Below the pieces are notes generated by a model that was given only the letters and a program-made list of their open reading frames with translations, searched no databases and was not told where the DNA came from. A DNA stretch of 64,000 nucleotides from Schmidtea polychroa (taxonomy: Eukaryota): the NCBI GenBank assembly GCA_044892525.1, contig CM097886.1, forward strand, positions 183,384,312 through 183,448,311, given 5' to 3'. A program made the position numbers and the translations under genes. This document shows positions 15,607 through 63,791 of the stretch, in pieces (the stretch's first letter is position 1; each line of letters starts with the position of its first letter).

Positions 15607-17153
15607 TCAATTAAAAAATATTTGCATCCGATTGGTTATTTCAGCGTTGCAAATAGCACAAGCGTGCAATCGATCAACACAATCAAAACAGAACAAATGG
15701 CCACATTGTAATGCAGTATTTACATTATTGTCCATGCAAATATTGCACACCTAAATTGCAATATCTCATAATACAAATCCATATATTAATTTACTCCTTT
15801 CTCCTTATCTCTGTCACTCTTTTTCACATCAGGTTTTGTAAAATTTTTACCAAAAAAATTCTCAATTTCCTCCTTAACATTGATATCTGTGCAAGAATCA
15901 ATAATCCGCTGGCCACGAGAGGTAACCTTATAGATGTCACCACCTAGAGGGATTATTGTTTTAATAGCTGAGATCAGTCTTATTTTGGAATATGCCTATA
16001 AATCAATAATTATCAATAAACAATAAACAATAATCAATCAATCAATACATTATCGGAAATCGATATTTTCCCAAATAATTGTGTCAATACCGTTTGTCCA
16101 TCAGCATCCTCACAATTGAATTCATTTGATTCATAAATCAAAGCTTCCATCAAATCTTTCTCCTCTATCTCAATTGCCATCTGAAGAGCTGATTGGTTTC
16201 TCGTGTTTTTCAAGTTGACAAATTTCGATTTGTTAATGGATTCCAATAGTTTCCATGCGTATTTCCATTTCTTTTCCTTGATGATAAATGTTAATAAGGT
16301 TTCTCCCACTTCCAATGATCTAGGTTCCAATATTTCTATTCTTATAAGGTGGTCAAACAATTCATTGTTATCATTATTCACAGAATCATGGAGGAGATTT
16401 TCTATGATTGATTGCTGTAATGCAAAACTTGATTTATCAAATAATAATTTCATTAGTTTAGTTTCAGCTTTCACGCATGATTGAAAGGTGACATTTGTAA
16501 TATTTGCGGAGAGACAATTGTCAGAGAGAAGGTTGATCAATATTTCTCCATATTCAAACCAATGATTGGTGAAAGGCGTTTGAAAATCGATTGAGGAAAT
16601 ATTGACCAATTTAGGATTATTGGACACGAGAGCAAGCATTAATCTGATCAATTGATTTATTATCAATGATTTATGGATAAATTTTAATAAATTTTACTTT
16701 TCACTTCCAATATTCGATGCCAATTGGAATACAGTGATCCCATTGGTTGATTTGACATTGACATCTGCTCCGTTTCCAATCAATATATTTGTAATATCGA
16801 TTAATTTATTCAAGTTCTACAATTAATATTTACAAGTCAATCAAAATATTTCCTTACGTCATCATTGATATCAATTGGTGGCTCGGCAAGCATCTCAACC
16901 AACGGAGTGTTTCCTAAATCGTTGATACTATCAACTTGTGCTCCCGCATTGAATAGTGAACTGCATAAATTTGGTTGCAGGCATTTCACCGCCAGATGCA
17001 GCAATGAATTATTGTCTCCGTCATGAGCATTTGAGCTGTTTGAATCCAGTTTGTCAACAAAACATGGGAAAAGAGTCCCATGAAATTTCAATGACAAAGT
17101 CAGTGCATTCTCATTGACTGTCAATGAAATTATTGATTGTGCAAATGGAATGG
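15607..17153 (-). CDS. Ankyrin-repeat + C-terminal RING finger protein (putative E3 ligase); 5' end unresolved
   Basis: Exons 17153-16858, 16816-16698, 16643-16049, 15995-15795, 15750-15607 join in frame through 41-54 nt GT-AG introns (about 450 aa). Ankyrin motifs NSLLHLAV, GADVNVK, NQSALQMAI; RING CNICMDNNVNTALQCGHLFCFDCVDRLHACAIC. Confidence 0.85.
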
Positions 17154-29400: not shown

Positions 29401-31080
29401 TCAATCCTGCTTCTTTTATTTTTTCTAATACTTCATTTATTCTTTTTATATGATCTTCTTTGTCTTTTGAGAATATTAAAATATCATCTAAATACACTAT
29501 AGCAATTTTCCTAAAACCATATTCATTAATTTTTGGAATGTAGCTGGAGCAGCAGCAATCCCGAATGGCATCCTATTAAAGCAGAACTGCCCAGATCTTG
29601 TTGAGAACACTGTCTTTTCTTGAGAATTTGCTGTCAATTCAACCCGATAATACGCGCTTCCCAGATCAATGGTGCTAAAGTAAATTGATCCATTTAATGA
29701 ATCTAACATCTGTTCGATATTAGGCATTGGGAAGATTTGTCTTTCTGTCATTTTATTTAAACTTCTAAAATCTAAACATAATCGAATATCATTTTTCTCC
29801 TTCTTCCAGACACATACTAACGGCGTATTCCATGGTGAGTCACACTTCCTAATTATGCCGTTTTCTTTCAAATTTTTAATAGCTTCTTCAATCTTTTCTT
29901 CTAGGTGGGCTGGCTGTCTTCTTGGGTTCAAATGGATTGGTCCTTCAACAGTTTTAATATCATGCTTCAATAGATTGGTTTTGCTATATCCCACTTATCT
30001 ATCATAAATACTTCGGCATTTTTTTATTACTCCATAAAGCTTGTTGTCACACCTTAATCCTATTAATTCTATTGCTCTTTTAAATCAAAGTTCATCGCTC
30101 GTTCTTTTTCCAAATTTGGCTTCAATGTTGCATATTTCCATATTATTATATTCGCTTACATTTGCGCTGTTATTTCCGATAACTTTCATTAGTTTTATGT
30201 CAAACCTACGTAATACATCGATTCCTCCAATTATCGAAGGAGAAACATTTTCGACTACTACAAAAACAATATTTTCTTCTCTATTTCCTATATTTATTCT
30301 AAGCTTGATTCTTCCAAAAGTTTTTAATGGACTACCATTTGCGCACCAGATTTTGTCTCCATGTTCGTTTAAAACTGGATTTCCGATCTCCTTTATAATC
30401 GAACTATCAATCACATTCATTCTAGCTCCTGTATCCAACAAACAATTCTTAAAGTAATTATTTATGCCTATTATTACACTTGGAGGTCCACCCATTTTAT
30501 CATAAACAATATTATACTCATCCTTCTTCAAATATGTTTCACTTGTATCAAATATTTTATCCTTTTCATTATGTAGATAAATCATATTTTCTGTTTTTTT
30601 TAATTTTTTTACGTCATCTATCGATAAAATCTGAGAACAATTATTTTTGCATTCTTCTCTATTATCGTCATCAATTTTTATTTTTTCAAAATTGTTTTCA
30701 TTCGGCATATTTAAAATAATTGCATCATGAATATCCGTAACTTTATTTTTTACCGACTTTTTATTTTTTACACTTTCTATTATATCACATTGATTCGCTT
30801 TTTTAAAATTTGTTTCTAGCTCATTATTTTTTTCAACTATATCGATATTTCCTACAATTCTACTGCTACAATTATTTCTGATTACATTATTCTCATCCAA
30901 CATTTTATTATTTACTTTATTTAAATTATTTACGAAAGGACTTATACTATTCACGTTATTATTAATATTTTCTACATTATTTACATTATTTACAAAAGGA
31001 ATTATACTATTCATTTTTCTACTAATACTATTAATATATTTATATCTACTTATAAATTAATTGTTTAAATATCCCTAACA
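26481..31080 (-). mobile_element. Defective Ty3/Gypsy element (PR-RT-RH-IN remnants, gag absent)
   Basis: TGTT...AACA ends with 5-bp TSD ATTGC (26476-80 and 31081-85); 3' LTR 26481-26701 after the purine tract CAGGGGAGA; only about 40 nt of the 5' LTR remain; LLDTGA, YLDDILI, DTDASF and FDVIAIDFCGP motifs in broken frames. Confidence 0.9.
28117..28897. mobile_element. Solo LTR (781 bp) nested in the RNase H domain of the Gypsy element
   Basis: TG...CA ends and 5-bp TSD GTAAT (28112-16 and 28898-902); excising it restores ELLAIYYFAQHLKHYLYGKRFQLRTDH. Confidence 0.85.
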
Positions 31081-44192: not shown

Positions 44193-44997
44193 AGTTTATA
44201 TAGTAAATTTGGTCCAATCAGGACTTAGCTTGTGTGTAAAATAATGTTTTATCCTATTTTTTGTGATTTTTAATCATTTTCTGAGTTATTTGTTTATTTT
44301 TTCTTGCTATTTTATTAAATAATTTAATTTTTTATTTTTCCTCCTATTTTCTGCTTAGTTTTGCTGATTTTTTGGTTTCTAATTTTGATTTAATTTTCAT
44401 TTGTTTCAATTTATAGTTTTTCCTTTTTCTAATATTTATCTCTTTAATGTTATTTTATTCTCTTGATTTTTATTTATTTTTTCCTAATTATTTTGTCTTA
44501 ATTTTGTGGATTGTTAACTAGTTTTGTTTATTTTTGATCTGCTTATTGTTTGATTTATTTTCGTGGTTTTTGTTTTACTCTTTTTATTTTATTGTTTCCT
44601 TTTATTTTTCGATTTTTCTTACACTTGGTTGATTACCCCAATTCCTTTTATACAGGTTTTTTTTAATTAAGTTAATATTTATTATGATTATAAATTTTCT
44701 AAAATTTAATTATTACCGTTTTCAGCCCAACAATAGCTGCATCGGTCAATTCAAAGAAGAACTTCTTACATCGGCAGAAGTGGCTTTTTGCGACCATACA
44801 ATCATGCATTCACACAGCTTTTTATCACGCGATATTGCTGATTCAATATTTTCGGGGTTGTTTACTGATTCCAATATTGCATGAAAGAACAGTTGTGGAA
44901 GTATCAAAATATTCAAAATTTTTAGTAATGTTTTGGCCTCGGAATCGAAAAGAAGAATTTAGGAATAGTTGAAAGATGATATTACATTTTCTGGGAG

Positions 44998-45995
44998 TGT
45001 TGGGGTTCAGTAGGAACCAGAATCAAAAGTTTAGAATAATTACTAAAAATAAATAAAATTAAGATTAAAATATAAAAAGTAATAAATAATTACTAAAAAT
45101 AAATAAAATTAAGATTAAAATATAAAAAGTAATAAATAATTACTAAAAAATAAATACACAATAAAAATAGTAATTAATAATTACTATTAATAGATTTGAT
45201 ATAACTAAAGTCGTATAAATACCAGAAAAATTTCATTGATCGAGGAGGGAAATCGAGATAAGTGAATTTAAGAAGAAACCACAGGAGCTAAATTTAGAGA
45301 GAACAAAACTTCAATCCGATTGGATAATTTCAACAAAAAATCAAACCGATTCTGGAATCTAACTAGTTTAGGAATTTTAACTATAGTCATTGAGCGAGAG
45401 AAAATTAATTGGAATTTTACTTCATTTAAAACTTCTATCCGATTTGGAAAATTTCAAGTGATATTAGATATACCGATCAATAGGAATAAATTTTGAATAT
45501 TCATTCTTTGGAGCCATTTTAGAGAGAGATTAAATTAGTTAGTTTTATCAATTATTTAAATAATTATATTAAGACTTTTTGTTTAAATTAAATTAAACTT
45601 AAATAAGGGGAATAATAGTGTCAGCACGTATTTTGTGTTGTTTCGCTATTAATACTTATTTGAAAAAGAGTTAACCAATTTCTGGGTTGACTCTATCGCG
45701 TAAAATTTGGTGATCTTCCCTATCTTTTTTCCTTTCACTTATATCGGGCTGTTGGCGCATTTAGGGCCAGCCTTGATTCGTAGAAATATTCTTCAGGGCG
45801 GTTTGCATAACCGTTTTCTTTTCTTCAGAGAGCAGCGTGAATAATTTGTACAAATAAACAATCGTGTAATTTTTATCATTAATAAATATTGTAAATCATA
45901 TTTCTTATTTATTACCTATACGCATAAATTATTTATTTGGAGTCAGATAGAACGTTTTTTGTGTTAGTTCGACTACCTACCTATCGAACCTAACA
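44998..45995 (+). repeat. 5' LTR
   Basis: TGTTGGGG...CCTAACA; internal 50-bp tandem duplication at about 45051-45150; I saw one substitution versus the 3' LTR. Confidence 0.97.
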
Positions 45996-45998
45996 TTT

Positions 45999-46016
45999 TG
46001 GTGAGCCCGACGTGAT
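45999..46016 (+). promoter_or_regulatory. Primer-binding site, tRNA-Trp
   Basis: TGGTGAGCCCGACGTGAT, 3 nt after the LTR; 17/18 match to the complement of the metazoan tRNA-Trp 3' end as I recall it (TGGTGACCCCGACGTGAT). Confidence 0.85.
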
Positions 46017-46095
46017 AAAAATTATCAGCGGGTAGATATTGAAATAAAACAAAATAGCGTTAGGAACTAGAGCCAGAGTAAAACTGGATAATCAA

Positions 46096-47716
46096 ATGGC
46101 AGAGGAAGCTAATGTAAATGCATTTGCCAGATATCCCGCTCTGCCCGTAAAGGCATTCAGCGGTGATCCAGGAGAATTCCCCGAGTTTATGTCTGAATAT
46201 TATCAGATGGCCAAAGCATATGCCTATCCAGATAATATCATGATACAAAGGTTACCTATATATTTGAAGGGGCTGGCAAGAGGAAAAATATAACGATATA
46301 ATGGCATTACCAGTTGCTCAAGCACCAAAAACATGGGCGGAAATGAGAGAACAAATGACTGCCCGAATATTGCCCGGAGATGTGGGAAGAATATTTAGAC
46401 AATTTTATCATCGAAAACAGAATGCCAATGAACATGTGGGGGAATTTGCACACCAGCTATCATTAATTGCTGAAAGAGCATTTGGACCAAAAACCACATG
46501 GGCAAAACCTACAGAATTGTTAGTTAAGGATCAGCTATGGGCAGGACTTACTCCTACTATGAGGAACGCTCTAATATTACATACTAGTGATGATTTTGAC
46601 GAATTGACACGGAAAGCTGTCGTAATTGAAAGCAGCTTGGAAAAGTCAACTATGTTCCTGGTAAACAGTGAAAGAACACCGGTGGAGTGTTTCAATTGCC
46701 ATAGAAAAGGGCATATAGCGAAAGATTGTACCAGCAGGAAAAGTATGGACAATCGCAAAAGTATACAATGTACCAAATGTGGACGGAATAACCACGGTGC
46801 GGAAAATTGTAGAGTGCAGAATTTGCAATGCGAAAAATGTAAACGTAAGGGACATGTTGCTGCGGTCTGCAAGACTAGAAGTCCTCAGAACAGCAATAAT
46901 TTTAGTACAATTAAAAGAGATGATGTAAATTCATCAGGAAAGATAAAATGTCACGGATGTGGGAAATTCGGACATATGATGAGGTCATGTCCTCAGAATC
47001 AGAGTGGAAATACGGGTCAGTTCAATAAAAATACCGATAAGGGTAATGTGAACAAGCCTAAGACAACTTTTATGGTTAACCAGGATCAAGGGTTAACTTA
47101 TCTGCAACAACTGGAAATGGAAATCCATGAGGAAAAGAATAGGTTGGCTAGATTAACCGACCAAGAAGGTACCATCTTTATGGTAGAAGTTGGAAGAGAT
47201 GAATTTCTCAGAAAAAAGGACTCCGTTAGGGAGGACCTTCAGGAAACGGAATCAGAGGAGAGTTCCGATGATGAACCTAGTATGGCCACCATACCAAGCG
47301 AGTTCGATAGAACCTTGCCAGGGAAAGCAAAGGTAAAAGAAGGGTCAGATACCCTAACAAAATGTTTAAAACTGGTGGATTCCAGATATGAGTACCAGCA
47401 GAAGCTGGCCAGACAATTGGGAAAATTGGGAGAAACAGAAATTAAAATTCATGAAATAGATACAGTAGTAAAACTGATATCGCAGGTCGAAGATGATCCA
47501 AAGTATCATAACAACACGTACAAAATCCTAAGGAAATTAGGAAAACTCTTGGAACGTGAGTGGGATCTCCAAGATGCCCAGCTCAATATAAAACTCCCAC
47601 AGGATAAAGAGTATAATCTCGATATAAATGTAAGAAGTCGAGCCGATAAATTAACGGAAGCATTGGCAAGTACTAAGCATCAAGGATATACTTATACTTA
47701 TGTGGAACAAAACTAG
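46096..47716 (+). CDS. gag: Gag (capsid-like region + 4 CCHC knuckles + helical extension), frameshifted at about 46285
   Basis: FSGDPGEF..LPIYLKGLARGK joins YNDIMALP if one A is removed from an A5 run; knuckles CFNCHRKGHIAKDC, CTKCGRNNHGAENC, CEKCKRKGHVAAVC, CHGCGKFGHMMRSC. Confidence 0.9.
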
Positions 47717-49197
47717 AAGCAAATCAAACACTTCTACAGAACGGGATACTCCCAGGTAGAGTGACGAAGCTCACAGCAAAGAGAGCACAGAAGCCAGTAG
47801 CAGTAATGGATCAAGATAGCGTATTCTTGATTACTCAAATGGAAATAGAGAGTTTGGAAGAAACTCAACAATTAACCCAGCGACTAGGGTTGGAACTGCA
47901 GAAATCCCCACGAGATGGAGAAACTATAAAGGAAATACTTGACTGGATGTTAGTATTACGAATACCAGTAGATTTGTTGGAAGCAATAATTCCACTTATA
48001 CTACCAGTAGTAAAGGAAACAAGCCCATTCCAGACGCAAATTGAAGCGCTGATGAGGAAAAATGGGAAAGCTATCCGAAGTCAGCCTGATAGACAAGGCA
48101 ACATTAATCTAGACGTGCGAATGATGGGAAAAGAACCATTAACAATGATTTATAATTGTTATATCAAGGTTAAAATATTGAGGAGAGATGTAATTGCCAC
48201 CGATCAAACTACAGGTATATTCCTGATAATGGTTCATGGCAGGCAAGTGGATGATGATGAATATCTAGTGGATGTGGGTTGTCTACCGTTGGCAACAACC
48301 ACGGTAATGATCATCCCGGTAACTCCACCCGAGTCCCAATGGTCATTAATGAGACTGCCAGATATAGCAAACGAAATTGCGGAAGAAATCGAGGAAATAA
48401 GACTAGAGGAAATTAATCCCTGTCAAATGGTGGACATTGACGAGGAAGATTACTTCTCAGAGTACGTCAGATTAAATCCAGGAGAAACAAACATAGGAGC
48501 TACTACGTCACAAGCTATAACAAATCCGGAGACTGAAAAACCTCCGGAGAAAGTGAAAAAAGATGGACGAGGACGTCCCAGAAAGGATCAAATGAAACCT
48601 TCACCCAAGGAGCAGTTAAATCCGGAAACGATTCGGAAAATTCAGTTAAAAACATTAGCAGGGATAGCTCAAGAAATGGACGACCAGGCGGGAGATGAGA
48701 CATCGTCAGAAAGGTCGTTATTGTGGCAACGTATACAACAAATGATCGGGATTATCAGGCCCGAATGGAGAATTCCAAAAACCAAGGGGATCGAAGTTAA
48801 GAAGATAACAAAAGAAGTCAAAAAGACAATGGATAGGATATCCAAAGATGTATCAACAGGAGATATTCAGGATACCATAGAAGCATTCGTACAGCAAGGA
48901 TTAACAAGAGGGAAAGTGTTAACATCGCTATCATTGTTAATTCAAAATGCCTTAGCCCGAGTAGGGGACGATAAAAAGCTTATAGAACGAGAAATCGATC
49001 AAGTAGTCGAAATGGTAGATTATTACCTGGAGGTATGGATGACCGTAAACAAATTTTGGGAAAAGGAAATTATTCCAAAACCACGATATGAAGTCATGGA
49101 AGAAGCCATAAATAATGGTAGTTCAGGCACAGGAAACATGACAAGCATGATCCTGATGTTTCTAGTAATGATGGGCATATTAAAACAAACAAATTCA
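47668..49197 (+). CDS. Unknown element-encoded protein with an AT-hook, ending in a signal-peptide-like segment
   Basis: Open frame of about 510 codons; GRGRPRK at 48565-48585; hydrophobic MILMFLVMMGIL at about 49147-49182. Confidence 0.65.
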
Positions 49198-50060
49198 TTA
49201 ACAGTATTTGACTGTGGAAATCTCGGGTATATTCGCTAGTAGATGCAATTGAGTGCAAAGAGGCGTATCCCGAGAAGGTTCATCAAGGGGAAAAGGTAGA
49301 ATATTACGTCTACCAGGAGAGTGAATTTTATAGAACCACGATAAAGGAATGTAGAGTTCAGAGGGCTACATTTGAATATTATTGCGGTAGTAATAGCTAT
49401 TCTGCTTTTCTGTCCGCAACATTAATACCAAGGCCGGTAAACATAATGCCCGAAGATTGCTTAGATGCATTTCGAAAAGGAAGTCTGAGGATAGACAACG
49501 AGGTATCAATCTCAGCAGAAACTGGGAAAACATTGGGAATAACAATCACTCGAGGAGGAACAATTGCCTCAGTTGGAACCTGCGAAGGAAGAAAGAAAAT
49601 TCGCGGTAGCAATTTAGTTTCCTATGTGGTAGACATAGAAGATTACTCAGTAGAGCTACGAGAATACGAGGGAACATACTCCCGACGATATCGAGGAAGC
49701 AAGAAGGACATTGCTATTCCCACAAATCAGAGACAGAGGTATCACGGAAATTATAAGAACAATTTATCATGAGAGCTTAATACGACCAGATTACAATTTA
49801 TTATTTAGACCGGAACACTATAAAGAAGCAGAAAGAACGTAATGATGAAAATATGGGGACGATTCACCAATTTTGGTATTTTCGTCGCGGGATGTTCAGG
49901 AATTTACGCAATATTTGTAATTTTAAAGCTGATAATTACACAACTGATGTCAACATATAGCATATTCAAAATTGGAGGATGGTCATGGAAACTGCTATTA
50001 GGACTATGTCCTATGTGTGCAGAGTTTGCATTATTCAAACATCACAGAAAGGAAATTAAA
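49198..50060 (+). pseudogene. Chuvirus-like viral glycoprotein (env-like), internally deleted and frameshifted
   Basis: N-terminal LTVFDC..YSLVDAIEC..YVYQESE..KECRV..YYCGSNSY..C..GTCEG, then in other frames TPDDIEEARRTLLFP..KIWGRFTNFG..IYAIFVILKLII..GGWSWKLL. Both ends follow the Cys and TM pattern I recall for chuviral glycoproteins. Confidence 0.75.
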
Positions 50061-50329
50061 GAAATTAGACAGAAACATTTGGTCAAGCATGAAGTAATTG
50101 GAACAGAAATGGAAGAGTATTCTAGTTATCGGGACGATAACAATTCAAAGGGAGGAGGTAATGGAGGCTCTCGTGAAACATCTTCAAGATCAAATCAATC
50201 ACGAAAACAGAACTACAACAAAAAACCGAGTCAGCAACAAAGAAAATCGAGATTTAAGGAATATCTTCCTCCATATGACCAATCAAAGGAAATCTATGTG
50301 AGAAAACAGTCCTCAGAAGGAGAATATGA

Positions 50330-53300
50330 CAGTTCCGACCAAATATTCGACATAAGGTCACCCAGATTCAAGAAAAGCCCAAGATATGTACAATTGCCAA
50401 CTTTGAGGAGTTTACCACCCCACCAAACGAGAGGCGGGAACGCTCAAAGGAAACAACACTCAGAACAGGACGACACCAATGGAAAATCGGTGAAGATACC
50501 ATATTTAATAATCTGACATGTTCAACATTGCCAGAATTACCTAAAGTGCACTATCCAAAGGAAGCGTTAGAATCAATTAAAGCTAAATTTAAAGAGTATA
50601 ATCCTCAACTGAGTGATCCTGAATTACTGGAAGCAGAACAAACGAGAGCCAATACAATCGGTATCTCGTACGATACTATCTTGATGGTCAATAACCCAGT
50701 GAATTTGGATAAAAAGCCAATGATAAAAATAAGAGTGAACCGACATACAGTTAATGCGGTGATAGACTCAGGAGCAGATGGTACCATAATAGAAGCTAAA
50801 TTGTTAAACCATCATGAACTGCAGTCGCTAAAACCGGCAGGAGTAAAATTAACAGGAGCAAACGGATCATCATTAAACGTAATAGGGTCATTATCCTGCC
50901 AGATTAAGCTATGTGACCAGGAGCTCCATCACGACATCATAGTAATGAGAAGTCTCCCAGCCGAATGTCTATTGGGTATGGACGTTCTAAAAAGACTACG
51001 AGGAGTAGTATTCGATTGTGCATCTGGATTGTTAATCCGAGCACGAGGTAAAAAGAGAAAAATTTACAACGATGATACAGCTTATATAGATCATACAACT
51101 ATCATACCACCCAGAGCAGAAACAGTATGCTTTGTAGCTACAAGCAATAATTGGGAAGGGGAAGTTGTATTTGAACCAGACGAAAGATTTTCGGAGAAAT
51201 ACAATATACCAGTTACGCATAGCGTTGGTTTAATAGTCAATGGCAGAATACCAATCAGGGTAGCCAATCTGGACATTAAACCACTGTACTTATATCCAGA
51301 TACCAGAGTGGGCAGAATCTGGAAACAAAACGAACCACAAGCCACGAGAGAAGGGTCGATACTCACCGTAAAGGCAGAAGAAAGAGATCCAGACATTGAG
51401 TACTATGATGCTCCTACAGCAAATAGCAAAGTGCTAACCAGAAAGGAAAACATTCAAGTAAATATGCTGTTGAGGAAATATGACCAGGTATTCGCGAAAC
51501 ATGAATACGATCTGGGAAAAACAAACCTGCTAGAACATGAGATCGTTCTTACCAATACAAAACCCATAAAATTGAGACCATACCGTATTCCTTTCAGTCT
51601 GGAGGAATCAGTTGATAAACAGGTGAAATTGATGTTAAAACATGGCATAATCAGACATAGTAAATCACCATATCAATCACCAATGATAGTGGTGGCCAAG
51701 AAGGATGGATCAGTACGATTATGTAACGACTATCGCATGGTTAACGAAGCAACATGCAAAGATAGCCATCCATTGCCATTGTTAGATTATATCTATGGAC
51801 GCATGAGAAACGCTAGGTTCTTCTCAGTAATGGACGCTCAAAAGGGATTTTATCAAATTAAGTTAAAAGATGAGACTATACCAATAACAGCGTTCTCTAC
51901 CAGTATGGGTCATTACAAATATAACGTAATGCCATTTGGACTCACAGGAGCTCCAGCCACATTTCAAAGAGCAATGAATTTGATGCTCATGGATGTACAC
52001 CATGCGATGGTATACATTGACGACGTCATAGTATTTTCGCCAGATTTGGAAAAACACTTGGAACATTTGGAAGATGTGTTCAAGAAGTTGATCAATGCTA
52101 ACATGAAAGTAAAACCAACCAAATGTAAATGGGCCGAACCAGAAGTGGTATATGTTGGCCATATTATATCACGAGACGGGGTTAAACCCGATCCAGCTAA
52201 TGTTGAAAAGGTTAAGAATTTTCCAGAGCCTAAAACCGTTAAACATATCAAAGGGTTTTTAGGCTTAGTTGGATACTATAGAAAATTCATTAGAAACTTC
52301 TCGGTTATAGCCTTTCCACTTACGCAGTTAGAAGGCAAAAACGTCAAATTTGTGTGGGGAACAGAACAGCAGGAAGCATTTGATATGCTCAAGGAAAAAC
52401 TCGTCAAGCCACCTATATTGCGATTTCCAGACTTTGAGAGACAATTTTTGGTTATGACAGATGCCAGCACTCGGGGCATAGGTGCTGTGTTAGGTCAGAG
52501 AGATGACCTAGGAGATGAGTATGCAATTGCATACGCTAGCAGAGGATTAAAACCGCACGAAAGAAACTACGCAGTGATAGAACTAGAGGCTTTAGCAATT
52601 GTATATGCTATAACCCAGTTTAGGACATATCTATGGGGTCGAAAGATTATAGTGTACACCGATCATAGACCGTTACAGTGGTTGACGAAACACACAATGG
52701 ATACATCAAAACTGGTCAGATGGGCATTAATTTTACAGCCATATGACATAGAAATCCATTATAGAAAAGGAGATCATAATGGAAATGCAGACGCTTTATC
52801 GAGAATGGACCAGGAGGAGGAAGCAGAAGATGTGAAGGAAGGACGTCTCGAAGGGACTATCTTCACACTGACTCGAGAAGCCAACCGGCTAGCTGATTTA
52901 ATGGAGGCACAAAAGGCTGGCGAAGAAATCAATGTCATTCGACAAGCCTTGGAAGCAAAATACGTGCCCACAGAATTCACGAAATACTGGGAAAAGAATA
53001 AAGATAAGTTTGTGCTGGAGGAAGGATTGGTCAAATATTCCGATGTAAGAGACAATGTTATAATGGTCCCTAAGAAATACCGTGAAGCACTCATGTTGCA
53101 GTATCACGATGGAGCCTTAGGAGGCCACCTGTCATCCAGAAAAACATTGTCAAGGTTAAAACAAAAATATTTTTGGCCCGGCATGAAACAAGATGTTAAA
53201 ACCTGGTGTCAGACATGTAAGATCTGTATCACCAGAAGAAATACCGGAAAGAAACCACACGTGCCTTTGAAGCCGATGCCAGTACCATCTACGCCTATGG

Positions 53301-55189
53301 AGATGACAGCAATGGATGTGTTGGGGCCATTTAAAGAATCCAATAGCGGAAACAAGTACATATTAGTTTTCTGCGATTACTTGACTAAGTGGCCAGAAGC
53401 CTACCCGATGCCTAATCACAAAGCTGAAACAATAGCTAGAATTTTCGTTGAACAAATTGTCTTTAGGTATGGAGTACCTACAAAGCTATTAACGGATCGG
53501 GGAGCTGATTTCATGAGTAATTTGCTCAAAGGAATAAACGATTATTTCGGAGTTTTAAAGTTGAACACTTCCCCATATCACCCACAGACGGATGGGCTAG
53601 TAGAGCGGTTTAATGGAACATTAGCTAATATGTTAGCATCATATGTAAATTCAGGGCAAACGGATTGGGATATCCACATTCCATCCTGTTTATTTGCATA
53701 TAGAAATGCAGTACACGAAGGAACAGGTGAAACACCATTTTACCTAATGTATTTGAGACAAAGTAAAATGCTCATAGATCTGTTGTTTTTTCCGAAGGCC
53801 ACACAATACTTGGATCAGGAAAATTATCTGATGGAAATGAGGGAAAGAATGCAGGAAGCATGGGCTAGAGCGGGTCTCAGTATAAAATATAATCAGGAGG
53901 CATCCAAAGACTATCATGACAGAAAAGCCAAGGATCATGGCATATCGGTTGGAGACCAAGTGATGTTGGAAAGTCATTACAATAAGAAAGGCTTATCACC
54001 AAAGCTCATGCGAAATTTCAAAGGGCCATACGAGGTATTGAGAACCACAGATACAAACCTCATATTACAACTAGTAGCCAACAGAAAAGCAGAACCAATA
54101 ATGGTGCATGCTAATCGGTGTAAAAAGTGCGAAATCTCAACAAAAGGAACCTCGGGAAATTCAAAAGTAAAAGCACCAGAGAAACAAGCGAAACTAAACA
54201 CTACCGAAGAACCACAAGAGCACCGATACCCATTGAGATCACGGGGTGTTCCAAAATCGGTAACCTTTTTGTTGATAATAAGCTGTATGATGACTTTAGC
54301 AATGGCAAAAAGGGATAGAAAGGCATATTTTCAGCCTATGGCGATGCAAGTAGAGCATTTACATTTTATAAGGACATACCACGGAATTAGCATACTCACG
54401 ACGTGCGATAATGCTACAAAGTTCAATTTACATTTCTACAACAGGTACTTGCGGATCCGCCAACTCGATTCAGAAGACAAAGAGTGGGAATTATATGATT
54501 TAAAAGCAGAGACGGATTATAAACTGCATATCGCAGCGTCACGGTTATATCGGAATGGTTGGTATACCTATCACGTATCAAATTGGATCCTACGGACGGC
54601 AGATTTCACAAATCGCATATCGATTTCCTACGAAAGGGATAAAGTAAAGTTTAGCCAGCAAATTAACAGGGAGGAGAAAGTGAAAATCAGCATTCTAGAC
54701 GGATCAACCACGAGAGGAACATTATGGTTAGACCAGAACTCTCCCTCCCAAGAAATGTATCTAAATCAGTCAGTAAAATATTCGGTTCTAGTTATATACT
54801 ATAGTCCGAGGAAACGGGAAGACGATAGGTGGTTCGAGGTATTTGAGGAGATTCTACCTCTGAAACAGCCGGTTATAACGAAAATACCACCAAAAGTAGT
54901 CAGAGAGAACATGGTGATACATCCCGAAATGTGGCAACATCTTAGACAATTGTCACCTATCAAACAAATATTTTGTCAAACGCCCCCAAACCTGACAAAC
55001 TGTTGTGATTGTAATGCCATCACAAACTTTAATGCAGGATATATCCTGAAAATACCCGTAGGGGTATGGATTACGGTATCGGCCGTACTATCGCTAGTAA
55101 CTACACTGATAGCTATGGGTATTTGGACCAAGCTATATTTTAGACAAGCCATAAGAGCTTACGATGGAGTACTGATGTCGCAATTATGA
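50330..55189 (+). CDS. pol: Pol (PR-spacer-RT-RNase H-integrase) with a C-terminal membrane-protein extension
   Basis: The frame is open from 50330; VIDSGA (DSG 50765), YIDD (52013), MTDASTRGIGAVL, HHCC zinc finger, MDVLGP..TDRGADF..YHPQTDGLVERFN, and RYPLRSR at the integrase end. Confidence 0.97.
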   Translation, partial: QFRPNIRHKVTQIQEKPKICTIANFEEFTTPPNERRERSKETTLRTGRHQWKIGEDTIFNNLTCSTLPELPKVHYPKEALESIKAKFKEYNPQLSDPELLEAEQTRANTIGISYDTILMVNNPVNLDKKPMIKIRVNRHTVNAVIDSGADGTIIEAKLLNHHELQSLKPAGVKLTGANGSSLNVIGSLSCQIKLCDQELHHDIIVMRSLPAECLLGMDVLKRLRGVVFDCASGLLIRARGKKRKIYNDDTAYIDHTTIIPPRAETVCFVATSNNWEGEVVFEPDERFSEKYNIPVTHSVGLIVNGRIPIRVANLDIKPLYLYPDTRVGRIWKQNEPQATREGSILTVKAEERDPDIEYYDAPTANSKVLTRKENIQVNMLLRKYDQVFAKHEYDLGKTNLLEHEIVLTNTKPIKLRPYRIPFSLEESVDKQVKLMLKHGIIRHSKSPYQSPMIVVAKKDGSVRLCNDYRMVNEATCKDSHPLPLLDYIYGRMRNARFFSVMDAQKGFYQIKLKDETIPITAFSTSMGHYKYNVMPFGLTGAPATFQRAMNLMLMDVHHAMVYIDDVIVFSPDLEKHLEHLEDVFKKLINANMKVKPTKCKWAEPEVVYVGHIISRDGVKPDPANVEKVKNFPEPKTVKHIKGFLGLVGYYRKFIRNFSVIAFPLTQLEGKNVKFVWGTEQQEAFDMLKEKLVKPPILRFPDFERQFLVMTDASTRGIGAVLGQRDDLGDEYAIAYASRGLKPHERNYAVIELEALAIVYAITQFRTYLWGRKIIVYTDHRPLQWLTKHTMDTSKLVRWALILQPYDIEIHYRKGDHNGNADALSRMDQEEEAEDVKEGRLEGTIFTLTREANRLADLMEAQKAGEEINVIRQALEAKYVPTEFTKYWEKNKDKFVLEEGLVKYSDVRDNVIMVPKKYREALMLQYHDGALGGHLSSRKTLSRLKQKYFWPGMKQDVKTWCQTCKICITRRNTGKKPHVPLKPMPVPSTPMEMTAMDVLGPFKESNSGNKYILVFCDYLTKWPEAYPMPNHKAETIARIFVEQIVFRYGVPTKLLTDRGADFMSNLLKGINDYFGVLKLNTSPYHPQTDGLVERFNGTLANMLASYVNSGQTDWDIHIPSCLFAYRNAVHEGTGETPFYLMYLRQSKMLIDLLFFPKATQYLDQENYLMEMRERMQEAWARAGLSIKYNQEASKDYHDRKAKDHGISVGDQVMLESHYNKKGLSPKLMRNFKGPYEVLRTTDTNLILQLVANRKAEPIMVHANRCKKCEISTKGTSGNSKVKAPEKQAKLNTTEEPQEHRYPLRSRGVPKSVTFLLIISCMMTLAMAKRDRKAYFQPMAMQVEHLHFIRTYHGISILTTCDNATKFNLHFYNRYLRIRQLDSEDKEWELYDLKAETDYKLHIAASRLYRNGWYTYHVSNWILRTADFTNRISISYERDKVKFSQQINREEKVKISILDGSTTRGTLWLDQNSPSQEMYLNQSVKYSVLVIYYSPRKREDDRWFEVFEEILPLKQPVITKIPPKVVRENMVIHPEMWQHLRQLSPIKQIFCQTPPNLTNCCDCNAITNFNAGYILKIPVGVWITVSAVLSLVTTLIAMGIWTKLYFRQAIRAYDGVLMSQL

Positions 55190-55387
55190 CAATTACAGAC
55201 TCCCCCGAGGGAAAAATCATATATAAATATTTATATATATCTTAAAATCTATATTTACGTAGAGCTCCAGGTAGCATTAAAATTCAGCATATGTAGATCT
55301 TTTATAATAAGACTCATGCATATCCTTTTAGCCTATTATGGCATATCAGTATATCTGATATTATGGTTAATGATTTTTATTTCAGGA

Positions 55388-57472
55388 ATGCAGAGCCATC
55401 CAATATCCCAATACCAAGGAAGGCATAGCATTATACGTGCTACGACCTTGCTAAAGGAAAAACTTATTTACAAAAACCTGGAGAAGCAGGTTATGGAGCA
55501 AGGTAGAAAAGGCCAAAGGCACTGGTTTTACGGTCATTGTTCAGGCATACCCAATAATTTCAAATTTTACGAGGCTCCAAAGCGTCAAATGATTATCTCC
55601 AGAATCCCGGGTAAGCATAACGGTAGTATTAGGCTTACCGAGGTCATGCCTGAGTTTGGTAGACATAGTCTGACCAACCACCTGTGGATACACGCCATTA
55701 ACAAACCAATTACGGTTTACGTTCCTGGCGCCACAAACCCTATTTTGCTACAAAAGCACACTACCCTCGAAATAGAAAACGGGGACGGAAGGGAAAAGAA
55801 CATCTCACTGTTATGTGAAGGTATAGATACCATCATAGCAATGGAAATCCTGGAACCTCACAGAGAAGCACAAACAAGATGGGTTAATGACCCAAACTGG
55901 ACATATAATGTCAACGATAACGACATTAAAACATTTAAGTCCTTTGTTCGACAGTGTTTGGACCTAGAGGATAACTTCACCATTTTCGTAGCAGCTCACT
56001 ACGCTACACTACGACAATTCCTGAAACCGGCAATTGTGGCCATTTCAATCTCACATTTCAATGGCGATTTGATACTCAACACGAGAGTCACCCCCAGAGC
56101 ACAGGTCAAACATTACCAATCGCATGCGCATGGTATGACCGAGAAAGAAATAATAGGACAGTTCGACGGAGAAGACTGTGCCGAACGAATCAGGAAAATC
56201 TGCGATGGGAAAATCATCGTGGGATTGCTAGTAAAGGACCTACTAGAAGTTATTAGATTCCCAATGCAGCGCGCTCTCGGAATCCGTGAGTTAGGCGCAG
56301 CTAAATGTCTCGAAAGTAGGGACCTAAAGAAATGCAACGGGTATTACCGTTTGGCATATTTGGCAACGGCAGTCACCGGTAAAGAAGCACATCACTTCTC
56401 GGATCTTCAAACGGAGAATGATGTAACTACCATCAAGGAGATTTACGATAATCTACGAGACATCTGGGTCGACGACATTTCACCGGACACCCGGAAAGAG
56501 GTGGTGTCTTCACAAATCAAGCAGATGGAACCCGGTACCTCAAGCAGGCAGAAACCATTAGCTATGGAGAGCTATGTGAAAGAAGATATCCCCAGGACGA
56601 AGTTGCTGAAAATAGTGGAAGAAGATTCCTTGTCGCCGCCAGCCATTTCAATTGCTGATGAAGACGACTATGCCACTTGTGAGAGTGCAGACGATAACTG
56701 CCTCCAAGTCACCCTTACCAATGACGGTAGAGTGGTGAATTCGGCTAAAATGGAAGTAGAAAAACCCCAGCCAGCAGAAAAGTTAGTTGAACGGGTCACC
56801 AAGATCCTGAAAGCGTTGGCCCCGTTGGGTGAACCCAAACACGGAGCCGAAGGAGGATCATAACCGCAAGTTGTAGCTCCATTACTTAAGTTACAAGACT
56901 TGAAGTTTAAAAAGAAAACAACGGAGAAACCCCCCCAGAAAGAGGACAAGGAGAAAAATGTTCCTACCTCTACAAAGAGGAAAACGGAGATTCCTAAGAG
57001 CACGAAAAAGAAGATGCCTAGGATATCCATCCAAGATGAGGATGACGATCTCCTAGAAACCCACTATCAGCCACCAGATCCTGCGTTGACCAAGATATTG
57101 GCAACAAAGAGTGAACCCACGATTTCAGGAGAGCCTATTATCGTAAAGGAAGGCGAGTTCGTCGGAAGGGGCAATTCAATCAAAATACGGTAAGACCTCG
57201 ACAGGGAAGATCCTAGTTGGTGGCAGAGACCCGACAGCAAATGGAAACCGCGTATCACGGAATACGACGGAGGCCCAATCCATGAACTAGCCGTATCCAA
57301 TTTCCCCGACTACGGAGTATTGGAGGCAATTGAGGGCTCATATATAATCTCCTCAATTGTGTACAAAGAGGTAAGTACACGGGAGACTTTGGTGGTCAGT
57401 TACAGACCTGACATTGTAGAACAAAGGATCCGTAACGAAAGTGCCAAGGTCATGAAAAGGAGAAAATACTAG
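55388..57472 (+). CDS. 3' accessory ORF with a degenerate DEDDh (REX4/ISG20-like) exonuclease domain; two in-frame TAA stops
   Basis: The same frame runs 55388-57472, broken only by TAA at 56861 and 57191; IVAISISHFNGDLILNTRVTP..HYQSHAHGMT..GKIIVGLLVKDL..ENDVTTIKEIY; strong acceptor TTTTATTTCAG 2 nt before the ATG. Confidence 0.65.
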
Positions 57473-57770
57473 CAATTCGGCTATGTGTTCAATGGACCTA
57501 GCAATTTGCTATACGTCCTCAATCCCAACACCTTCGACAACTCAATCCAATCCAGATATTCAAATTGATAGACATTATGAACAACATTTGATTAATCTGA
57601 TTTTTAATTTTGTTTAACAATCTTTGATTATTTTGATTTTGATTTTGATTACTTTATGTATATACATTTTATTCAGTTGTTTTATTTTATTTTTATATTT
57701 TTATTTTTTATGTATTGGCTGCAAATTGTCTTGTCCTTACCGCTTTATTTTCGGGACGAAAATCTTGTTA

Positions 57771-57781
57771 GGGGGAAGACA
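57771..57781 (+). promoter_or_regulatory. Polypurine tract
   Basis: GGGGGAAGACA abuts the 3' LTR and is preceded by the hairpin TTTTCGGGACGAAAA. Confidence 0.85.
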
Positions 57782-58779
57782 TGTTGGGGTTCAGTAGGAA
57801 CCAGAATCAAAAGTTTAGAATAATTACTAAAAATAAATAAAATTAAGATTAAAATATAAAAAGTAATAAATAATTACTAAAAATAAATAAAATTAAGATT
57901 AAAATATAAAAAGTAATAAATAATTACTAAAAAATAAATACACAATAAAAATAGTAATTAATAATTACTATTAATAGATTTGATATAACTAAAGTCGTAT
58001 AAATACCAGAAAAATTTCATTGATCGAGGAGGGAAATCGAGATAAGTGAATTTAAGAAGAAACCACAGGAGCTAAATTTAGAGAGAACAAAACTTCAATC
58101 CGATTGGATAATTTCAACAAAAAATCAATCCGATTCTGGAATCTAACTAGTTTAGGAATTTTAACTATAGTCATTGAGCGAGAGAAAATTAATTGGAATT
58201 TTACTTCATTTAAAACTTCTATCCGATTTGGAAAATTTCAAGTGATATTAGATATACCGATCAATAGGAATAAATTTTGAATATTCATTCTTTGGAGCCA
58301 TTTTAGAGAGAGATTAAATTAGTTAGTTTTATCAATTATTTAAATAATTATATTAAGACTTTTTGTTTAAATTAAATTAAACTTAAATAAGGGGAATAAT
58401 AGTGTCAGCACGTATTTTGTGTTGTTTCGCTATTAATACTTATTTGAAAAAGAGTTAACCAATTTCTGGGTTGACTCTATCGCGTAAAATTTGGTGATCT
58501 TCCCTATCTTTTTTCCTTTCACTTATATCGGGCTGTTGGCGCATTTAGGGCCAGCCTTGATTCGTAGAAATATTCTTCAGGGCGGTTTGCATAACCGTTT
58601 TCTTTTCTTCAGAGAGCAGCGTGAATAATTTGTACAAATAAACAATCGTGTAATTTTTATCATTAATAAATATTGTAAATCATATTTCTTATTTATTACC
58701 TATACGCATAAATTATTTATTTGGAGTCAGATAGAACGTTTTTTGTGTTAGTTCGACTACCTACCTATCGAACCTAACA
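57782..58779 (+). repeat. 3' LTR
   Basis: 998-bp direct repeat of 44998-45995. Confidence 0.97.
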
Positions 58780-60662
58780 GGAGTACCGATGCTTTGAATA
58801 AAGGAAATGTTAAACGTTTCCTATAGTCTTGCAATATTTTACCAAAGTAAAAGCTATACAAAATGTTCTATATGGATGAAGTTAGACAATGGTTAATGAA
58901 CAGAAAAGAGCAACAATTTTACGACTCAATAGCAAGAACAACATTATAAAAATGAGATAATGATTCTGCCATAAAAGATTTGAATTAGAAGAAATAATTG
59001 AACGATTTAATATTTGCAATATTGATAAAGATATTTTATTCAAAGAAATCCATAAATTAAATTATTTTATCAACACAGAAAAACTAAACACCAAAGAAAA
59101 AGGTACAAAAAAATTGACAATTATACTTTATTTAATGAAATATATAATGAATATCTTTCCGAATCAGTTTTCGCCGAAAATAATCTTTCCAAAATCATGC
59201 TATTTAAATGTTTTTGTAGCATTTCAAATCTATTAACCGATGGTTTTTTGATTTGATTGTTATCCAAAACCGCTCAAAATATTGAGTATGAATGTTGTTA
59301 TCATCACAATTGACCCCTAATATAGTTGAGGTCTGATAAGCCGTTATACTCACACCATTCTTTAGTCATGATCGAATTTCCTTCTAACACAATCATGGCA
59401 AGTTTCTCTCGTACCATTAACAAAATCGAACATTTTTAGTTCTTCTACAAAATTCCAAATTATTCAGTATTTTTTCCTGTATTACTAATGCCTTTTGCAT
59501 CTCGACGTGAAATCAGATTTTGTTTTTCAATAATTTATTTACTTTTGATTTTATTTTTGTTATTTTCATTTATATTCGCTAGATAGTTGTATTACTGCCA
59601 TTCAGAGCAGTTCTACTGAGACAATTTTGTTTAAATTTTAAACCTTTTTTTACAGTTTAAACCCCCCCCCCGAGTTTGGGTTGAATTCTTCACTGCCCTG
59701 GTTTGGGTTGTGGGGCCCATTGATCAATTTCGCAGTCTACAAATCCTATCTACATTTATTTACAGGCTAGCAGCAGTGAACACACAATCTTACTTCTTAC
59801 TGAAGGTCTGTTAATTGTTCGCAACTTATTTTACTAGATACAATCTGCTTTTGTTGAAGTTGAGTAAGACATTGACAGCCATTCGAAATTACCTTTATCT
59901 GTTTTTAAATCTTTAATTTTATGTTCTGAATAAAAAATAAGCTCCTAAGAAGCAACTTTCTTAAGTTTTAAGCTGCATGCTTTTATAAGATCATTGAGCA
60001 TAATATTTTGACAGCACCAACTATCACAATTTCCAGCTTGTAATATAGTAAAACAGAAGTTTTCAATCCTTTTTAGCAGCGGAGCAATATTTTATATTTT
60101 TCGCTAATACGGAGCCTCAATATTAAAATCATCTTCAATTTCGATAACTTTTCACTTTATTCCACTTCCTCAGATTTGCGCATTTTCCCATTTCGTGTCT
60201 GACTGTACCCTTTTACAGTTCTGTTTTTACCATAGCATTCTTTGCATTGCTTCTCTGCTTGACCGCCATTAAATTTCGGTTTTCCTTTTAATCTGAACTA
60301 TATAATTTAATAATTTATTTTTAACACCTCAAAAGTTTAAAGAGCCTTTAGGAACTTTCCGAGTTGCACACATCGAAAACCTGCATTAAATGAAATAAGT
60401 TTCCTGAGATTTGTAAAGCCATTGCCAAAGCCGCCAAATATCAAAAATAACAGCCAACATTTAATCAATAAGCACAGTAAAATCAATAGATTTAACAAAA
60501 CAAACTGAATATTTATTACCACATCTGCCAAATATATTTAAATATATAATAAAATCAAAATTACTAATAAATGCAATCTGCCGAACGAGGAAATTATGCT
60601 TTATTAGGAACGCTATGTAAATACTAGTTGCTAGGCAACAAAGAATAAATCACAAAATTTTA

Positions 60663-61494: not shown

Positions 61495-63327
61495 CAATGC
61501 TTTATCTAGATCTAATATTTATAATATTAATTATTAAATTGCCCAAAAATCATTGTGAAAAGTAAAGGCAATTGTTAGATTATTGTGAAGATAACTACAT
61601 CGGAAGACGTCGAAAAAGAGCTAATCCTGTCTTTGTTTCTCATGTTTGGAGTGCATACAGTCGTTGAAGGTTATAGCGTTGAATGATGGCATCAATAAAT
61701 GCAAGCTGTGATAATACTTCAAAAAAAACAATCATTTCTGAATGTGCTAATAAAGTTTANNNNNNNNNNNNNNNNNNNNNNNNNNNNNNNNNNNNNNNNN
61801 NNNNNNNNNNNNNNNNNNNNNNNNNNNNNNNNNNNNNNNNNNNNNNNNNNNNNNNNNNNNNNNNNNNNNNNNNNNNNNNNNNNNNNNNNNNNNNNNNNNN
61901 NNNNCAGATAATGTCAGGGGGTAAATAATGAGGGGGTAATATCAGGAGGGTAAATGATCAGGGGGTAATATCAGGAGGGTAAATAACGAGGGGTAATGCC
62001 AGGAGGGTAAATGATGAGGGGTAATTTCAAGGGGTAAATGATGAGAGGGCAATATCCTAGACACGGTTTAGTCAAGACAAGCATAAATTACAAAGATAAA
62101 TGGAGAGTATCAAAAGAAATGAGAAAGCAAAAAATTCGGAAATAACTTATTCACAGCGAAAGGTTGTCCAATGATAATAAAATATAATTTAATTATTTAT
62201 TATTATTATGATTAAATAATTTCTTGGTATCAGCATGAATTTAATATTAAACAAATCAATATTTTGCTGTAAAATCTTTCTTGAGAAAAATTCCGATTCT
62301 AAAATAATAAACGCATGAAAAAGCAATAATAATAATAATAAATCAATTATTATTATCAACCAACCGATCAGCCGCTCAATGTCATCCAAAATAATCACGC
62401 TGGCGGGTGCCTTGAGGGCGTCATCGAATATCTGAATGAAGCAAAATAATCATCCAAAAAATTTATCAATTCGCTTAGACACCTTTTTGATAGCGAGACA
62501 ACGAGCAGGCTCACTGAACCCGATCATGTTCCTCATTGAGCACATCCGAATGAATGTGAACCCGGTTTGCTTGGCCAAGTGGACGGCAATCGATGACGTT
62601 CCTGCAAGCGGCTCTCCATATATTAGCAACCGCTTTCGGCTGATATTCTCATTGGTCTTTAGGCTTTCGATCAATAATCCAGCTGTTGCGAGTGCTTTGG
62701 AGATTTCCGGGCTCCATTTTAGCAGCCGATTCTCCTTGAATTCCTGCAAATCGTCGTCGTGTCGTCCATAAAGCTGTAACAGCGAGAGATAAAATATCGA
62801 CAATATTAATAAATCCCGATTACCGCTTTCACGTCGTGCTCAATAGCAAAAATGAAATGCTGCCGATTTATTTTGAATGATTGCAAATCTTCTATCCGAA
62901 TCGCGATTCCCTTTTTCGGCTAAACCAATGGGTAAATTGTGCTACAATTCAATGATGAGCAGCAGCGGCTTACGTCGAATTTCTCGTCTTGCGCGTTCGC
63001 CAATGCCGCCATGACAACTGCCTCGATTTCGGCCCCACTGTAATTTTTTGTGAGTGCTGCCAATTCTTTCAAATCAACATCTTCGGCCAATATCTTTTTG
63101 TCGCGCAATTTCTTCGTATGGATCTCGAATATTTGATGCCGGCCGTGCTGGCTGGGTAACGGAACCTCAATCTGGACCCCCATGCGACCCGGTCGCAACA
63201 ATGCCTCATCAATCATATCTCGTCTGTTTGTCATGCCGATAATCAATATGTTATTCAGTTGCTCAACTCCATCGATTTTAGCGAGCAGCTGGTTGACAAC
63301 GGTGTCTTGCACAGCTGATCCGCCTGT
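60663..63327 (-). CDS. NSF: Divergent NSF/Sec18-like vesicle-fusing AAA+ ATPase, last 8 exons
   Basis: Exons 63327-62974, 62919-62824, 62773-62483, 62431-62365, 61226-61147, 61097-60898, 60848-60788, 60731-60663 join in frame; [79 protein letters not shown]. Confidence 0.92.
61407..61491. repeat. (TA)n microsatellite in an NSF intron
   Basis: Directly visible. Confidence 0.95.
61760..61904. other. Assembly gap (N run)
   Basis: 145 N. Confidence 1.
61905..62068. repeat. G-rich short tandem array (AGGGGTAAATGATG / AGGGGTAATATCAGG-like units)
   Basis: About 9 alternating 14-15 nt units next to the gap; resembles a transposon subterminal array. Confidence 0.7.
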
Positions 63328-63791
63328 CTGGATCCAACAAGTTCACATTTTAATAATCACTTCATATTATCAATAAAAAAATAAAATATTTTCAAATATC
63401 AATAATAATAACCAATGACAATTATAATCAAATATTGATTTTTTTGATTTTGACAATTTTAATAAAATTAAATTATTAAATTATTATTCAAATATGGATT
63501 TGTTTATTTTGCAAATAGAATGATTACGTTAATTAAAAATAAATTAATCATAATTTAAATATTATTAAATTAATTAATTTTTTATTCATCTTTAAATAGT
63601 CAAATATTGATTTATTTGATTTTGACAAAATTTAATAATTAAAAATAATTAATATTTATTAAATAAATAATTTAAATATTCAAATACGGATTTGTTTATT
63701 TTGCAATGATTACATTAATTAAAAATAAATTAATGATAATTTAAATATTGATTTGTTTATTTTAACAATACATAGAATTAAAAATTAATTA

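Follow-up and report, generated by a model that had tools for sequence, protein, structure and literature searches.

Retrotransposon and accessory ORF

The window, by which we mean the whole 64,000-nucleotide stretch of Schmidtea polychroa DNA that was analysed, contained an LTR retrotransposon whose accessory ORF lies 3′ of pol. The following features were assigned.

44998-58779, + strand: LTR retrotransposon, 13.8 kb, carrying the accessory ORF
44994-44997 and 58780-58783: target-site duplication GGAG
44998-45995, + strand: 5′ LTR, 998 bp, TG...CA, from LTR comparison
45999-46016, + strand: primer-binding site (PBS), which we take to be tRNA-Trp-like; in the sister families, the LTR is followed by an 18-mer that is identical or nearly so
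46096-47716, + strand: gag with three CCHC zinc knuckles, frame broken in the window copy (PF00098 E 5e-10; PF03732 weak)
47677-49211, + strand: cargo region between gag and env, with a homologous region in sister families
49212-50516, + strand: env, chuvirus-like/HSV-gB-type fusion glycoprotein upstream of pol, in pieces (PF24664 E 3e-14 and 3e-12)
50330-55189, + strand: pol, 1619-codon open frame with protease, RT, RNase H and integrase in Ty3/Gypsy order
54248-55186, + strand: Pol C-terminal tail with a signal-like and a transmembrane-like segment, dN/dS 0.18
55187-55387, + strand: pol stop TGA with CAATTA (CARYYA) next to it; downstream, a hydrophobic spacer open over 66 codons, in frame with pol and the accessory ORF
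55374-55385, + strand: splice-acceptor-like TTTTTATTTCAG, ending 2 nt before the ATG, putative in its use
55388-57472, + strand: 3′ accessory ORF, 694 codons, ATG at 55388, terminal TAG at 57470-57472
55388-55870, + strand: predicted N-terminal double-stranded beta-helix domain, 2OG-Fe(II) oxygenase fold, dN/dS 0.07
55955-56485, + strand: predicted REX4/ISG20-type DEDDh pseudo-exonuclease domain, dN/dS 0.08
56486-57187, + strand: charged low-complexity linker, acidic then basic, dN/dS 0.18
57194-57469, + strand: C-terminal conserved segment of about 92 aa, dN/dS 0.13, common to two sister families in the genome
57769-58779, + strand: polypurine tract and 3′ LTR (LTR at 57782-58779)

The gene order was gag, cargo region, PF24664 glycoprotein, PR-RT-RH-IN, Pol tail and accessory ORF. 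Several features of GAG-ENV-POL errantiviruses were present, namely LTRs, a PBS, the PR-RT-RH-IN order and a chuvirus-like glycoprotein (PF24664) between gag and pol. By its sequence, the element is a young GAG-ENV-POL Ty3/Gypsy element of errantivirus type with an HSV/gB-type env. Such errantiviruses have been described from Platyhelminthes, Nematoda, and Bryozoa (PMC13524379), and the present element shares with them, as they are described there, the env between gag and pol, the chuvirus-like glycoprotein and the Ty3/Gypsy pol; its env resembled by eye the Smed errantivirus env rows listed in that paper. The terms "exonuclease", "DEDD" and "nuclease" do not occur in the main text of that paper, nor does "exonuclease" in seven of its supplements. 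The initial annotation had placed the accessory ORF in the position that env usually occupies. Because the PF24664 glycoprotein sits upstream, between gag and pol, the ORF is no stand-in for env.

The 5′ and 3′ LTRs differed by one mismatch over 998 bp, and contigs from two sequencing runs joined 44994 to 58781, corresponding to the empty site. These results indicated that the insertion is young. The window copy was nevertheless defective: gag and env were spread over several frames, env had a deletion of about 950 bp near 49677, and the accessory ORF contained two stops. Since the near-identical LTRs and the empty-site allele coexist with several internal breaks, the element was probably copied from a defective template, with the proteins supplied in trans. 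The Pol tail at 54248-55186 is predicted from its sequence to be a second membrane protein, with a stretch of about 270 aa between the signal-like and transmembrane-like segments; a hydrophobic segment closes Pol in several sister families as well. The cargo region (47677-49211) had no significant family match in Pfam or among PDB sequences. Identification with 14-3-3 was rejected, the best PDB-sequence match reaching only E 0.36; by eye, stretches of the region looked ubiquitin-like and Bcl-2-like. Poly(A) ends of contigs from run X7 were located at window 47416-47425 and 50050, which may represent internal priming or 3′ ends.

The frame of roughly 695 codons with two TAA stops that had been proposed 3′ of pol was recovered as 694 codons, with premature TAA at codon 492 (56861-56863) and codon 602 (57191-57193). 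The stop at 492 was present in 1 of 58 other copies and that at 602 in none of the 58; the window copy's own product is shortened by both. An A-rich run around codon 515 (window about 56910-56935) was a frameshift hot spot in about a dozen copies, which may reflect mutation or assembly error. A Pfam search with the accessory ORF yielded nothing above noise (ToxA_N E 0.13, Photo_RC E 0.29). The C-terminal 92 aa found no match among the 82 proteins compared; assignment of this segment to phage baseplate families was rejected, the atlas matches being of low recognition (2024).

Predicted folds, catalytic residues and relatives

The AlphaFold2 model of aa 1-371 comprised two domains (pLDDT 92). 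In this predicted model, residues 190-366 (approximately) superposed on ISG20 with Z 18.1 and rmsd 2.9 over 162 aligned residues, and matched ISG20L2 in Foldseek with E 2e-9 and TM 0.83 of the target. The family profile matched ISG20L2 (1e-32), ISG20 (1e-20), and SDN1 (1e-17); the window protein alone reached only E 0.029 against ISG20L2, and PF00929 was matched by many homologues but not by the window protein. These results bear out the likeness to REX4/ISG20 that had been seen by eye at 55975-56455, for a domain now placed at about 55955-56485; the RNase H-like DEDD fold, for which AlphaFold and Foldseek had been suggested as the check, was indeed predicted. On the model, the domain is an ISG20/REX4-type DEDDh fold with a degenerate active site.

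The five catalytic columns were occupied in the window protein by A202, H204, L285, L340, and D345, so that one of five, the ExoIII Asp, was kept. Absent were the Asp and Glu of ExoI, the Asp/Glu of ExoII and the His of ExoIII, which is the DEDDh His. The initial annotation had correctly named the ExoIII Asp as the only residue retained, and the loss of the His adds to its account; it had also recognised the loss of the ExoI acids, though in a register two residues off, as it is A202 and H204 that sit on the Asp and Glu. The replacements were nearly invariant among 60 copies (L285 and L340 in 60/60, A202 in 59, H204 in 58). The lost catalytic residues are therefore fixed in the family and not a product of decay. 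Near the old active site, D284 was found in 60/60 copies and D345 in 59/60, so residual metal binding may remain. A third dead family had Glu rather than Asp at ExoIII. Judging from these residues, it is very likely that the window domain lacks canonical nuclease activity.

Residues 1-160 folded alone with pLDDT 90. This N-terminal domain, which was absent from the initial reading of the ORF, had no match in Pfam or among PDB sequences. In the model comparisons, it scored almost equally against ALKBH1 (Z 10.6), a prolyl-4-hydroxylase (10.4), and ALKBH6 (10.3); the best oxygenase aligned over 138 residues with rmsd 3.3 at Z 10.6. PHD2 was matched with E 2e-4 (model) and the N-terminal domains of vaccinia C16 with Z 8.1 and E 8e-4. 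An HxD/E motif occurred in 3 of 50 rows, scattered within aa 63-99, and not in the window protein, the stretch having been chosen from the sequence and not by residue-level superposition. One His of the domain, H102, was conserved. The domain is thus predicted from its model to have a 2OG-oxygenase-type fold without the iron triad, and the tied scores make it not assignable to AlkB over prolyl hydroxylases.

A full HMMER scan returned 73 relatives with less than 50% identity to each other, where a word-based protein search had given no match with the window protein and one with the profile. Names were found on none of the 20 relatives' records looked up. After one relative (P0062) had been discarded as a repeat artefact, 72 remained, of which 18 lacked one of the three motifs and were not counted; the final set of 62 rows, with all motifs covered, consisted of 54 public sequences, the window protein and seven sequences hand-picked from the same genome. 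All five catalytic residues were present in 37 of the 62 homologues and at most two in 25, with none holding three or four. The His was present in 37/37 active rows, and ExoII was Glu in 23 of these 37. The dead group had no common replacement motif at the catalytic columns. Quick trees required six and five state changes, of which at least two were forced by strong branches. In an AU test with the catalytic columns removed (57 rows; LG+G4 on a quick tree with long branches), a single clade of dead rows was rejected with p 0.013. The cellular relatives of the ISG20/REX4 class are active enzymes, and repeated loss is therefore the likely direction of change. The sequence comparison suggested that catalysis was likely dropped in several lineages, that of the window included.

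An active-type query found 116 further matches in the genome. Among 10 own-genome loci viewed in context, seven had gag, env, pol and the ORF in order, one was the partial sister L056, and in two the ORF lay beside unlinked or deleted parts; several own-genome loci kept DxE, GHDLxxE, and HSxxED. The ORF was located 3′ of pol in sister families too, and two long metagenome contigs had the order env-pol-ORF. All five residues were kept in five metagenome loci, which had been found with a pattern demanding ExoI, and no relatives were found among 58 pattern matches in viral contigs. The initial annotation had proposed a captured host nuclease. Such a capture would be an old one, because the gene is lineage-wide and many relatives keep an active-looking site. 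Some further structures were also observed. At locus L133 (G000:C2, about 116.106-116.110 Mb), a natural deletion inside the element has fused PR-RT-RH in frame with the spacer and 3′ ORF, and integrase is gone. L051-L052 are tandem elements with a common LTR, 100% identical over the 2670 bp compared. Many of the public homologues P0001-P0025 come from contigs that exceed the ORF by only 150-850 nt, which would fit subgenomic transcripts or assembly breaks in AT-rich flanks.

Selection and expression

A translated genome search gave at least 112 matches, of which the best 59 other copies and the window were analysed (60 in total). Because the ranking rested on aa 1-371, it favours copies in which this region is intact; the rest of the ORF led to the same result. 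The ORF was covered in 58 of the 60 copies (window included), 28 without and 30 with a stop or frameshift. Pairwise dN/dS among copies was 0.07 for the N-domain, 0.08 for the nuclease domain, 0.18 for the linker and 0.13 for the tail, compared with 0.05 for integrase. The pN/pS of the nuclease domain had a 95% interval of 0.065-0.138, and its variants in at least three copies comprised 57 synonymous and 13 non-synonymous changes (60 copies). Singleton variants in this domain stood at 0.55, as expected after insertion. The third dead family (12 loci) gave a dN/dS of 0.08. With purifying selection in all four parts of the ORF, the comparison across family copies that the initial annotation had suggested came out in favour of a gene: the accessory gene is real and under purifying selection, with hardly any room for doubt. 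In dead members, P55, N56, P236, and R237 were present in every covered row, K/R59 in 22/22, R66 in 18/22 (10/30 in active rows), and R300 in 22/25; the conserved basic residues may be structural.

The acceptor noted earlier directly before the ATG at 55388 proved well conserved: TTTTTATTTCAG, ending at 55385, was kept in 60/60 copies, and one 26-nt context in 56/60. An acceptor-like YAG lay 0-11 nt before the first ATG in 9 of 12 lineages, compared with 20% of 786 background ATGs (p 8e-5; the lineages are related and were grouped by eye), and three of the 12 had no close YAG. Diversity in the spacer was low at all sites, with pS 0.024 against about 0.17. A conserved splice donor was not found, the candidates after the PBS differing between families. 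None of the 15 contig joints listed (four runs, three of them guessed to be RNA) joined the leader to 55385, and the joints carry no evidence on expression. The YAG enrichment and the low spacer diversity favour splicing, in cis or trans, which from the sequence is probably the main expression route.

Readthrough of the pol stop, producing the ORF wholly or partly as a membrane-tied extension (Pol tail, hydrophobic spacer, pseudo-nuclease), is less probable, at perhaps one chance in five, and would be compatible with any function. TGA-CAATTA was present in 58/58 covered copies and in sister L056, whose ORF is only 50% identical, and the spacers in frame with pol were open over 66 codons in the window family and 68 in L056. 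A Markov model of the spacer's own sequence put the chance of its being open at 0.005, the other two frames held 10 and 2 stops, and one subfamily had an in-frame 3-nt deletion in the spacer. CARYYA stimulates readthrough after UGA according to the relevant part of PMC4132726, and the 3′ ORF of SIRE1 is described as expressed by stop readthrough (PMC2829016). Against this route, the spacer was without selection at the protein level (dN/dS 0.80, interval 0.38-1.86), the ORF of the third dead family was out of frame with pol, and CARYYA followed none of the other pol-frame stops listed (11 loci, some of the stops premature). Furthermore, the window family and L056 have both retained the AG before the ATG, although the surrounding codons differ. 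TGA-CAATTA with an open in-frame spacer was conserved in one sister family only, L056. For the spliced subgenomic mRNA proposed initially, these results uphold the conserved acceptor-like site and set beside it a rival, the readthrough context in the pol frame, that the proposal had not included; both routes could operate.

Possible function and related systems

We favour the reading that the locus encodes a selected accessory gene, made of an oxygenase fold and a dead ISG20/REX4 fold and likely expressed from a spliced mRNA, whose product would likely serve as an RNA-binding decoy against decay or silencing; taken whole, we give this reading an even chance. In the proposed mechanism, an ancestor of the lineage would have taken up a REX4-class nuclease, probably from its host. 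By analogy with arenavirus NP ExoN and plant SDN1, active versions would shorten, from the 3′ end, the RNAs by which silencing is triggered or guided. Several lineages, including that of the window, would then have dropped catalysis and kept the fold and surface, so that binding would be what selection now maintains, and the dead protein, as a decoy, would shield the RNA of the element from decay by the host and from silencing by small RNAs. The disarmed form is likely to bind RNA rather than cut it, because four of its five residues are lost while relatives keep all five. The decoy is favoured because the family can do without catalysis but has retained the fold and several basic residues, and because DEDD folds are used for immune evasion by arenaviruses and for RNA binding by Maelstrom and EXD1. 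In the sources consulted in part, the arenavirus NP ExoN acts against innate immunity, and Maelstrom and EXD1 are motif-less RNA binders of the piRNA pathway (PMC7968707, PMC5408684); all three are analogies only, and the arenavirus NP feature match was weak (0.82, rank 30). The protein is fairly likely to be a nucleic-acid binder. An anti-silencing role specifically, proposed by analogy, is possible but on the unlikely side. Somewhat more doubtful is the broader proposal of a counter-defence gene of enveloped flatworm-type elements that would have changed, on several occasions, from the degradation of small or double-stranded RNA to its mere trapping, a piRNA/RNAi suppressor with cutting and non-cutting versions in one genome.

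About one chance in four may be given to the protein being a replication-cycle helper that acts on the element's own nucleic acids by 3′-end trimming, clean-up of RNA:DNA hybrids beside RNase H, or RNP packaging or export, the dead forms being RNA chaperones or scaffolds with no anti-silencing role. As far as the passages drawn on go, Rodriguez et al. propose 3′-end processing for the rotifer DEDDy ORF3s (PMC5408684), and REXO4 cooperates with RNase H1 on R-loops (PMC12915616). The gene also accompanies pol in 7 of the 10 own-genome loci viewed in context. Yet most Ty3/Gypsy elements replicate without such a gene, and a core processing step should need catalysis, which is lost in 25 of the 62 homologues. 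Rather improbable is a protein-binding decoy, in which the two dead domains, as mimics of host enzymes, would bind not RNA but proteins of the host, such as partners of its REX4-class nuclease or of a 2OG oxygenase. The N-terminal domain of vaccinia C16 is a viral oxygenase-like fold that binds host proteins, and the likeness of the N-domain to it (Z 8.1; E 8e-4) points this way, as does the lack of a conserved HxD/E even where the nuclease is active (3/50 rows). The C16 match was weaker than those to cellular oxygenases, and the most conserved residues of dead members include several Arg/Lys. There is only a slim chance that a rearranged active site still allows the domain to cleave RNA. The copies hardly vary at D284 and D345, and Maelstrom, a DEDD fold without the motif, has been described as an endoribonuclease in the portion of PMC7968707 relied on; the domain has, however, lost the two acids of ExoI as well as the general-base His, and the dead group has neither a common replacement motif nor, in the third family, the Asp at ExoIII. 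Finally, a captured nuclease decaying as a pseudogene, which the two stops in the window copy and the stop or frameshift in 30/58 covered copies might suggest, is refuted by the dN/dS among copies (0.07-0.18 in all four parts; third family 0.08), with 28/58 copies free of breaks and the breaks mostly private or at the homopolymer near codon 515, and is extremely improbable.

Among known systems, the bdelloid rotifer LTR retrotransposons Juno and Vesta and the Terminons carry a DEDDy-type ORF3 (PMC5408684). As described in the sections of that report used here, ORF3 resembles the present ORF in being a separate ORF 3′ of pol with a DEDD-superfamily 3′-5′ exonuclease fold, and its ExoII is often Glu (DEED), as it is in 23 of the 37 active rows here. 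By description only, ORF3 belongs to the RNase D-like DEDDy class, has its residues intact and occurs in elements that lack env, whereas the present ORF is of the REX4/ISG20-like DEDDh class, joined to an oxygenase fold and often dead, and its elements carry env as well. The His in 37/37 active rows and the best matches, which are ISG20-like, place the family in the DEDDh class and not in the rotifer DEDDy class. Cellular ISG20, ISG20L2, and REXO4 and plant SDN1 share the fold and profile match; the window protein differs from them in the loss of four of five catalytic residues, the extra N-terminal domain, the long tail and the mobile-element context. Orchid Ty3/Gypsy elements carry an AlkB domain, a recent functional m6A demethylase by the title of the report (PMC9289625). 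They likewise place a 2OG-oxygenase fold in Ty3/Gypsy, but the domain here is old, lacks the metal motif family-wide and scores equally against AlkB and prolyl hydroxylases. Burro elements, in the part of PMC6431247 concerned, carry other cargo and measure 30 kb, compared with 13.8 kb here. DEDD-type ORF3s in rotifer retrotransposons are thus already known. The fusion of an oxygenase fold with a DEDDh fold and its repeated inactivation are apparently new, as we found no description of either in the literature searched, a scope outside which subscription papers and Repbase lay.

Few accessory genes besides env are known in animal LTR retrotransposons, and these are mostly uncharacterised experimentally. 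Here, one gene occurs in many high-copy families and is constrained nearly as tightly as integrase. The matched active-looking and dead versions in one genome offer a natural experiment on nuclease capture and pseudo-nuclease retention. Should the protein indeed block silencing by small RNAs, this would be one of the rare cases of an animal transposon that encodes a counter-defence.

Several minor observations were made elsewhere in the window and genome. A second, unrelated-looking broken Ty3/Gypsy pol (PR, RT, RH and IN pieces) lies on the minus strand at window 26696-31056. A 219-codon frame on the minus strand at 16034-16693, with ankyrin-like repeats at its end by eye, is possibly a host exon. 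A short tandem repeat of about 28 nt was found at 61909-62021, and diverged AT-rich repeats at 63419-63763. The genome's best PF00929 match was an intron-free 388-codon DEDDh frame (L031; G000:C3, about 127.853 Mb), which we presume to be ERI1-like.
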